The notes under the pieces are model-generated. The model saw only the letters and a program-made list of their open reading frames with translations, did not search any database and was not told the origin of the DNA. Shown piece by piece: positions 5,833 to 6,184 of a stretch of DNA of 19,790 bases. How positions within the stretch are numbered: the first letter of the stretch is position 1; every line of letters starts with the position of its first letter. Position numbers and translations under genes: made by a program. The stretch is from a virus (lineage: Duplodnaviria; Heunggongvirae; Uroviricota; Caudoviricetes): positions 1 through 19,790 of IMG/VR virus record IMGVR_UViG_2872180393_000005. One strand, written 5' to 3'.

Positions 5833-6015
5833 ATGCGAAAGTTCAAAATTATTATTGAAACGGGAATAGCCGGTGGAGATTTCGAGGATGAATTCGAAGT
5901 GGATGATGATGCGACGCCTGATGAAATACATGACGAAGCAAAAGATATTTTCTTTAACTACTGCAATTACTCATATCACGAAATAAAAGACGAAGAGGAA
6001 GAACAAAATGGCTGA
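5833..6015 (+). CDS. Hypothetical small acidic protein, 60 aa
   Basis: ATG at 5833; D/E-rich (EDEFEVDDDATPDEIHDE...KDEEEEQ); stop overlaps the next start. Confidence 0.4.
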   Translation: MRKFKIIIETGIAGGDFEDEFEVDDDATPDEIHDEAKDIFFNYCNYSYHEIKDEEEEQNG

Positions 6016-6184
6016 TTTTGGTTCAACTAAATACAACGTCAGTTTTGAAGAATGGCATGAACTGTTAATGGACTATGCAGAGTTACGTGGTGGCAGTGCT
6101 GCTGATGCTGAAGCATGGCGTGATGATTATGAAGCAGGAAAAACTCCGGTCGAAGCATATTGTGATGAGTGGGGCGATGAATGA
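6008..6184 (+). CDS. Hypothetical small acidic protein, 58 aa (below the ORF-track length cutoff)
   Basis: ATG at 6008 overlapping the upstream stop; MADFGSTKYNVSFEEWHELLMDYAELRGGSAADAEAWRDDYEAGKTPVEAYCDEWGDE; stop overlaps the next ATG as ATGA. Confidence 0.4.
   Translation: MADFGSTKYNVSFEEWHELLMDYAELRGGSAADAEAWRDDYEAGKTPVEAYCDEWGDE

Follow-up and report, generated by a model that had tools for sequence, protein, structure and literature searches.

What do two small, overlapping genes for strongly acidic proteins do for the mobile elements that carry them? The question was raised by a 19,790-nucleotide (nt) stretch of Caudoviricetes DNA (IMG/VR record IMGVR_UViG_2872180393_000005, positions 1 to 19,790; the whole stretch is called the window below), in which two such open reading frames (ORFs), ORF1 and ORF2, occupy positions 5833–6184. 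A sequence-only reading had described them as translationally coupled small acidic phage proteins and had suggested, as a hypothesis, that they are DNA mimics or inhibitors of host defense or repair nucleases. The answer that we tentatively favor, at rather less than even confidence, is that ORF1 and ORF2 encode two independent, folded, acidic accessory proteins of the phage early region, each of which may stoichiometrically bind or inhibit a conserved nucleic-acid-handling protein of the host or of a defense system. This reading draws on the conserved acidity of the two proteins, their small stable folds without catalytic motifs, their recombination and replication neighbors, the spread of ORF2 over different mobile elements, and the fold class of ORF1.

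Both genes lie on the plus strand. ORF1 (MRKFKIIIETGIAGGDFEDEFEVDDDATPDEIHDEAKDIFFNYCNYSYHEIKDEEEEQNG) occupies 5833..6015, from an ATG at 5833 to a TGA at 6013–6015, and encodes 60 amino acids (aa). ORF2 (MADFGSTKYNVSFEEWHELLMDYAELRGGSAADAEAWRDDYEAGKTPVEAYCDEWGDE) occupies 6008..6184, from an ATG at 6008 to a TGA at 6182–6184, and encodes 58 aa. As read from the sequence, the start of ORF2 and the stop of ORF1 overlap by 8 nt (6008..6015, plus strand, ATGGCTGA), and the ORF1 TGA is formed from ORF2's own Met-Ala-Asp codons (ATG-GCT-GAT). Aspartate and glutamate account for 20 of the 60 residues of ORF1 (33%) and for 16 of the 58 residues of ORF2 (28%); the net charges are -15 and -12, respectively, and the isoelectric point is 4.05 for each. 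Hence the description of adjacent, overlapping, D/E-rich ORFs of 60 and 58 aa was confirmed in its coordinates, overlap and charge, and the coupled small ORFs are real. The sequence-only reading was also correct that ORF2 is missing from the program-made ORF list because it falls below the 60-aa default. That list gives a 72-aa version of ORF1 starting at a GTG at 5797. Because this GTG is inside the upstream insertion sequence (IS) remnant, and because prophage homology begins only at 5812, the 60-aa version is the correct one. A Shine-Dalgarno-like element for ORF2, GAGGA (5995..5999, plus strand), is inferred from the sequence 8 nt before the ATG, embedded in the Glu-rich tail codons of ORF1 (GAAGAGGAAGAA, window 5995–6015). 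The ORF2 stop in turn overlaps a third start (ATGA, 6181–6184), so the coupled unit is a run of three genes.

Both ORFs belong to families that are already catalogued, without a published function, and that are very common. ORF1 is a full-length member of DUF7167 (Pfam PF23768; 55.1 bits against a gathering threshold of 24.4, E = 8e-15), with residues 2–53 aligned to positions 1–60 of the 60-position profile. It also matched phrog_1997 (E = 9e-31). It does not differ from the other members of this family, which has no assigned function, and the motifs IET, FEV, DDAT and CNY are kept between ORF1 and relatives down to 37% identity. ORF2 matched phrog_519 (E = 4.5e-23) over positions 76–137 only of the 143-position profile, and all 32 aligned, diverged ORF2 relatives matched phrog_519 as well. 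The N-terminal part of the phrog_519 profile may derive from fused or read-through calls, one example being the 127-aa protein P0146, in which DUF1187 and ORF2 are joined. The family motif of ORF2 is FEEW..L...A..GGSaaD.eaWR.DYdaGKTP.eAw.DEW; the family has no Pfam model, and across the 32 relatives no Pfam family was matched consistently, even weakly. NCBIfam and PADLOC searches gave no match for either ORF. In E. coli, RefSeq annotates proteins identical to ORF1 as "DUF7167 family protein" and ORF2 as "hypothetical protein".

The sequence-only reading had named lack of conservation of the ORFs in related prophages as a result that would refute it; they are instead conserved, so that this refutation fails. 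The 379-bp pair is present in 1909 of 5426 complete E. coli genomes, at least 80% of its length being retained in 1748 of these, and the exact ORF1 and exact ORF2 protein sequences each occur in at least 1000 contigs. Nonsynonymous to synonymous rate ratios (dN/dS, Nei-Gojobori) were calculated between the window and diverged copies from 95JB1, TUM1880, pPE4 and 606R7, which had been found by DNA similarity, without selection on protein identity. The ratios were 0.03–0.09 for ORF1 (dS 0.24–0.82) and 0–0.11 for ORF2 (dS 0.17–0.34). Among very close ORF2 copies there are several single amino-acid changes without synonymous change. Judged by these comparisons, ORF1 and ORF2 are genuine genes under purifying selection. 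Acidity is likewise a family-wide trait in the aligned relatives of both, rather than a local accident: net charge is -10 to -15 in DUF7167 and averages -9.8 in the ORF2 family (range -4 to -15), down to 35–40% identity.

Are the two genes a dedicated pair? Several observations would be expected of an obligate two-component unit, that is, a heterodimer, a toxin-antitoxin-like system or a chaperone-client pair, whose coupling would thereby be explained: the 8-nt overlap itself, the retention of most of the pair in 1748 of the 1909 matching E. coli genomes, and the finding that ORF2 directly follows this ORF1 in all 82 IMG/VR loci with downstream sequence (the 83rd locus, L004, ends at a contig edge). 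Elsewhere the genes part company. An ORF2 relative with 79% identity lies behind Ead/Ea22-family genes in Enterobacter prophages, between Ea22 and xis/int. In Pectobacterium a relative with 74% identity follows a 57-aa acidic ORF; the latter was considered as a DUF7167 protein and rejected, there being no detectable relation. In IncI2 plasmids an ORF2 homologue with 88% identity follows a DUF1187 gene, within an operon of conserved order (CaiF/GrlA-family regulator, DUF1187, ORF2 homologue, SPFH, NfeD) that follows repA closely and is oriented toward the transfer genes (L103, 1090–2454; L104, 8294–10157). Other ORF2 relatives follow SSB (single-stranded DNA-binding protein) genes, and one is found in a phage contig with a T4-like module (Gp23/UvsY). 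Conversely, DUF7167 relatives with 37–70% identity have no ORF2 downstream. Small hypothetical genes follow DUF7167 in Enterococcus Herelleviridae, Phapecoctavirus and a Klebsiella lambdoid phage, and one diverged DUF7167 gene precedes the gene for a 243-aa protein. In E. coli ETEC1717 (L098, NZ_CP122876.1, 3188–4941), only about the first 90 nt of ORF2 are left, and a cassette of a PP2C phosphatase and a Ser/Thr kinase in opposite orientation has taken the place of the rest; DUF7167 is intact there, and the spot looks like a cargo-exchange hotspot.

The overlap, too, seems incidental. The TGA is supplied by the start codons of ORF2, and in IncI2 and Klebsiella plasmids the same ATGGCTGAT ORF2 start also provides the stop of unrelated genes that lie upstream. 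In 95JB1 and pPE4, moreover, a CAA-to-TAA change ends ORF1 three codons earlier, leaving a TAA and a 1-nt spacer, so that the overlap is lost. Both proteins are acidic, and neither has a PADLOC match. An obligate two-component unit is thus very improbable. By these gene neighborhoods, linkage of ORF1 and ORF2 is restricted to the lambdoid lineage of E. coli and Shigella, and otherwise the two are separable modules; the pairing described in the sequence-only reading held as adjacency within that lineage and failed as a dedicated partnership.

The distribution of the two families bears on what each protein might act upon. An exhaustive phmmer search gave 65 representative ORF2 relatives, nearly all of them stand-alone proteins of 50–65 aa. 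Matches to the ORF2 family by tblastn came from 554 plasmids, of which 516 are conjugative (IncI2, IncT, MOBH/MPF_F), and from 198 phage records. Many of the latter are virulent phages of about 155–160 kb that infect Salmonella, Klebsiella and Escherichia and that we take to be Ackermannviridae. A scan of species-representative genomes with ORF2 returned no relatives. DUF7167 was found in 38 phage records from Gram-negative and Gram-positive hosts (lambdoid phages, Guernseyvirinae, Enterococcus Herelleviridae and Phapecoctavirus) and in only 15 plasmid records. The spread of ORF2 over temperate phages, virulent phages and conjugative plasmids is what one would expect of a factor directed against a conserved host component. 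As a separate observation, K. pneumoniae plasmid NZ_CP109608.1 (L110, 6001–12171) carries an ORF2 relative with 49% identity within a long run of small hypothetical genes that all read the same way; an apparent type IV CRISPR-Cas locus (Cas6, helicase, Csf2) lies about 2.4 kb downstream of this relative.

The immediate neighbors of the genes raise the possibility that the proteins serve the phage's own recombination and replication machinery, as partners or regulators of an exonuclease, an annealase or a single-stranded DNA-binding protein (SSB). ORF2 relatives with 33–67% identity lie immediately behind an SSB gene, after RecT or ERF. In Klebsiella Guernseyvirinae, the gene for a DUF2800/PD-(D/E)XK exonuclease begins within that of a DUF7167 relative, and genes for a Gp2.5-like SSB and a DNA polymerase come after it. 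In E. coli, copies of the pair are located after the replication genes. The neighbors vary with the lineage, however, and include Ea22, DUF1187, SPFH, DUF551 and a methyltransferase; no phage recombinase is adjacent in this window or in the IncI2 plasmids; and the Enterococcus "exonuclease" beside a DUF7167 homologue is actually a DUF3850/ASCH protein. We therefore consider it unlikely that the proteins are accessory factors of recombination or replication.

Structure predictions gave a compact fold for each protein. For ORF1, AlphaFold2 with nine relatives predicted a strand-strand-helix-strand arrangement with a short acidic C-terminal helix (predicted local distance difference test score, pLDDT, 78.8). 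For ORF2, AlphaFold2 with the alignment of 32 diverged relatives predicted a three-helix bundle (helices 13–27, 34–42 and 47–55; pLDDT 87.6). The nearly invariant residues of ORF2 are F13, W16, W37, Y41, G44 and P47, and from the helix pattern we infer that these residues make up the core and a helix cap while the exterior is acidic. A ribbon-helix-helix fold (Arc/MetJ/CopG), which has an N-terminal beta strand ahead of two helices joined by a G-x-S/T/N turn and forms a dimer, was considered for ORF2, the only hint being a weak profile match to ORF56 of pRN1 (E = 0.5). It was rejected, as the AlphaFold2 model has three helices and no strand and many relatives start 2–4 residues before helix 1, without an N-terminal segment.

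Searches of the PDB with single sequences and with profiles gave only noise (uL23, E = 0.04; ORF56, E = 0.5), and Foldseek against BFVD returned uncharacterized phage homologues only. Sensitive profile searches and structure prediction had both been proposed as checks in the sequence-only reading. The former found no known mimic or anti-defense relative of ORF1 or ORF2; the latter gave confident small folds and no significant fold match to a known mimic. In these comparisons, known DNA mimic, anti-restriction and anti-defense proteins showed neither a sequence match nor a significant fold score with either ORF.

Acidic DNA-mimic inhibitors of host nucleases and restriction systems include lambda Gam, T7 gp5.9, Ocr, ArdA and T4 Arn. 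Such proteins are small and very acidic, and are encoded in early phage regions or on plasmids, sometimes beside phage exonuclease genes. ORF1 and ORF2 share size, charge and kind of location with this class (Ocr, ArdA, Gam, gp5.9, Arn and the Ugi/p56 class), but have no sequence or fold match to any of its solved structures, so the likeness is one of composition and location. The small inhibitors set beside the predicted ORF1 fold were T7 Gp2 (PF16857, an RNA polymerase inhibitor), T4 Dmd, and the anti-CRISPR (Acr) proteins AcrIIC3, AcrIC9 and AcrIE2. The predicted fold class of ORF1 is one used by several small phage inhibitors, a resemblance that we treat as a lead and not as membership.

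The same fold class, together with the location of the genes, suggests a different role, in which the proteins, like those of the lambda exo-xis region, would modulate the development of the phage or the physiology of its host. Instead of countering defense systems they would tune the lysis-lysogeny decision or host transcription, for example through binding of RNA polymerase by ORF1, as has been proposed for Orf55 and T7 Gp2. In the Stx phage ArgO145, Ea22-like genes stand on either side of the pair, in a region equivalent to exo-xis, and the Enterobacter ORF2 copies between Ea22 and xis/int have a similar setting. ORF1 and ORF2 thus come from the same type of variable early region, among Ea22-like genes by xis/int, as Orf55, Orf60a, Orf61, Orf63, Orf73 and Ea8.5. 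Exo-xis genes are reported to affect lysogenization and induction (PMC3824215, PMC6213356, PMC7093339). In independent work, Donaldson modelled lambda Orf55 as three strands and one helix, with p56 and Gp2 as the proteins for comparison (PMC8614690), and ORF1 is predicted to have the same three strands and one helix and comes from the same kind of region.

Homology was not borne out for any of these proteins. For lambda Orf55 it was rejected at the sequence level, hhalign finding nothing. T7 Gp2 was rejected as a homologue of ORF1 because PF16857 was not matched and the hhalign probability was 0.4% (Gp2 itself gave E = 4e-28). Neither ORF had a Pfam match to the exo-xis families DUF1317 (Orf60a), DUF1382 (Orf63), Ead_Ea22 or TraR-like (Orf73). 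Two arginines near strand 3 of Gp2 are reported to be needed for binding to the beta' jaw (PMC8614690); ORF1 lacks such arginines, its only arginine being R2, and its third strand reads NYSYHEIK. ORF1 and ORF2 are also far more acidic than the exo-xis proteins and occur outside temperate phages as well: the ORF2 family is present in the virulent phages of about 155–160 kb and in conjugative plasmids, elements for which there is no choice between lysis and lysogeny. On balance a modulatory role of this kind is rather unlikely, and less likely than the reading of the two proteins as inhibitors.

The reading of the proteins as inhibitors gives the following picture. The two are accessory genes of a variable early region of lambdoid phages, of the nin or exo-xis type, and in intact phages are transcribed with the delayed-early operon. 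Translation of ORF2 is coupled to that of ORF1 through the ribosome-binding site in the Glu-rich tail and the ATG that overlaps the stop. Each protein would most likely work alone, as a competitive DNA- or RNA-mimic-like inhibitor comparable to T7 Gp2, T7 gp5.9, lambda Gam, Ocr or a small Acr. Activity of ORF1 or ORF2 as an enzyme or as a DNA-binding protein seems unlikely, and by analogy with the acidic inhibitors a DNA-mimicking or competitive inhibitory role is plausible.

Several points weigh against this reading. The tail codons of ORF1 double as the Shine-Dalgarno element of ORF2, so that part of the acidity of ORF1 may be constrained by a purine-rich ribosome-binding site. The ORF2 homologue of IncI2 plasmids is not in an obvious leading or anti-defense region. 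With the Enterococcus neighbor reassigned to DUF3850/ASCH, nuclease adjacency rests on one phage group. Some prophage copies of the genes are pseudogenized, which indicates that the genes are dispensable to lysogens; together with the replacements among close copies, it is consistent with genes that serve the phage and that a lysogen can do without. Finally, the terms "DUF7167" and "DUF1187" and six RefSeq accessions of these proteins and their relatives appeared in no paper in the literature searched, and a search on "LygF" and "Rac prophage" turned up nothing concerning these genes.

A bolder version can be put forward, to which we attach little probability. Here ORF2 (PHROG 519) would found a so far unrecognized, mobile-element-wide class of three-helix acidic inhibitors of about 55 aa, whose target would be a single DNA-binding hub conserved in enterobacteria, for example RecBCD, a component of type I restriction or of bacteriophage exclusion (BREX), or H-NS/HU. 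DUF7167 would act separately, as another inhibitor, one belonging to the Gp2/Dmd/Acr fold class.

Could the ORFs of this window be non-functional leftovers, or spurious ORFs of a decaying prophage? The flanks of the genes supply much of what speaks for this. Matches to E. coli genomes start at window 5812–5813, and the only native upstream sequence left is a 21-nt leader (5812..5832, plus strand) that comprises a GCCC-GAAA-GGGC hairpin and the ribosome-binding region of ORF1. The hairpin folds no more strongly than shuffled sequences, and a promoter and terminator scan found nothing exceeding shuffled expectation. Upstream of the leader is the 3' remnant of an ISSfl1 element (about 5296..5811, plus strand; IS4 family), with 98% aa identity to S. 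flexneri plasmid copies by tblastn. The sequence-only reading had placed an "IS10-like remnant" directly upstream of the genes; an IS remnant is indeed there, and its identity is ISSfl1 rather than IS10. The ISSfl1 remnant separates the genes from their operon and is in turn truncated by an IS600 copy at about 4018–5295 (plus strand), recognized from an IS600 match at 4060–5295 and from repeats. The immunity and replication region that drives the genes in intact relatives is gone here, and together ISSfl1 and IS600 appear to have deleted the entire immunity, replication and early region between the integrase gene and ORF1.

Downstream, the third coupled gene (6181..6698, plus strand) belongs to the phrog_660 family, which is matched by both of its ORFs, 6181–6393 and 6240–6698. 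Aligned with the intact 171-aa gene of strain THO-006, it has a +2 frameshift in the A-run at 6261–6268, with A8 in place of A6. The split of the phrog_660 gene is thus best read as a homopolymer frameshift, reflecting either a pseudogene or a sequencing error. Expression of this copy of ORF1 and ORF2 is doubtful, as the early region with its promoters was lost to the IS insertions and the gene that follows carries a frameshift; going by the sequence context, the copy is probably a silent relic. The heavy degradation of the window and the pseudogene copies elsewhere point the same way. For the genes themselves, the strong purifying selection, the span of the families over phages of Gram-negative and Gram-positive bacteria and over plasmids, and the confident predicted folds make a leftover or spurious origin extremely improbable. 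That explanation applies at most to the silence of this copy.

Gene content marks the window as a lambdoid prophage, badly decayed, within a chromosome of Shigella type. The host flank beside the lambda-type integrase gene holds the SraC/RyeA and SdsR/RyeB small RNA (sRNA) locus (ryeA/ryeB, 463–607). At the far prophage end are a gene for an IpaH-type effector (leucine-rich repeats plus NEL E3 ligase; 16401–18116, minus strand) and the Shigella sRNA CssrB (18245–18427, plus strand). Taken together, the effector, CssrB and the ryeA/ryeB flank indicate a Shigella or enteroinvasive E. coli chromosome. In addition to the ISSfl1 remnant, there are three near-identical IS600 copies, namely the one upstream of ORF1 and others at about 1964–3238 (plus strand) and 13827–15101 (minus strand). 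The remaining contents include hok/sok and genes for DUF1367, YbcO, a Q-like protein (DUF1133), holin, lysozyme and Rz.

Three further features of the prophage were observed. A full-length RalA sRNA is found at 3440–3618, on an island between two IS600 copies; in Rac-like prophages, this RNA is the antitoxin to RalR in a type I toxin-antitoxin system. A P1/P7-like immunity module is present twice, at 7170–7971 in the nin-like region and at 10432–11239 after Q, and each copy combines c4-a1b1 targets with an isrK RNA and a C4 antisense RNA, behind which comes an ORF6N antirepressor gene. Four tandem tRNA genes (11447–11754) lie between the second antirepressor gene and the lysis cassette.

At present, ORF1 and ORF2 are well-conserved hypothetical proteins, and the ORF2 family is the more attractive of the two for its reach across kinds of mobile element. 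About one third of complete E. coli genomes carry the two genes, and relatives of ORF2 are found on conjugative plasmids by the hundred, the IncI2 backbone among them, as well as in large virulent phages. If either protein does disable a host nuclease, a restriction system or a nucleoid protein, it would be a widespread counter-defense or host-takeover factor, and would be relevant to prophage biology, to plasmid spread and to phage therapy.

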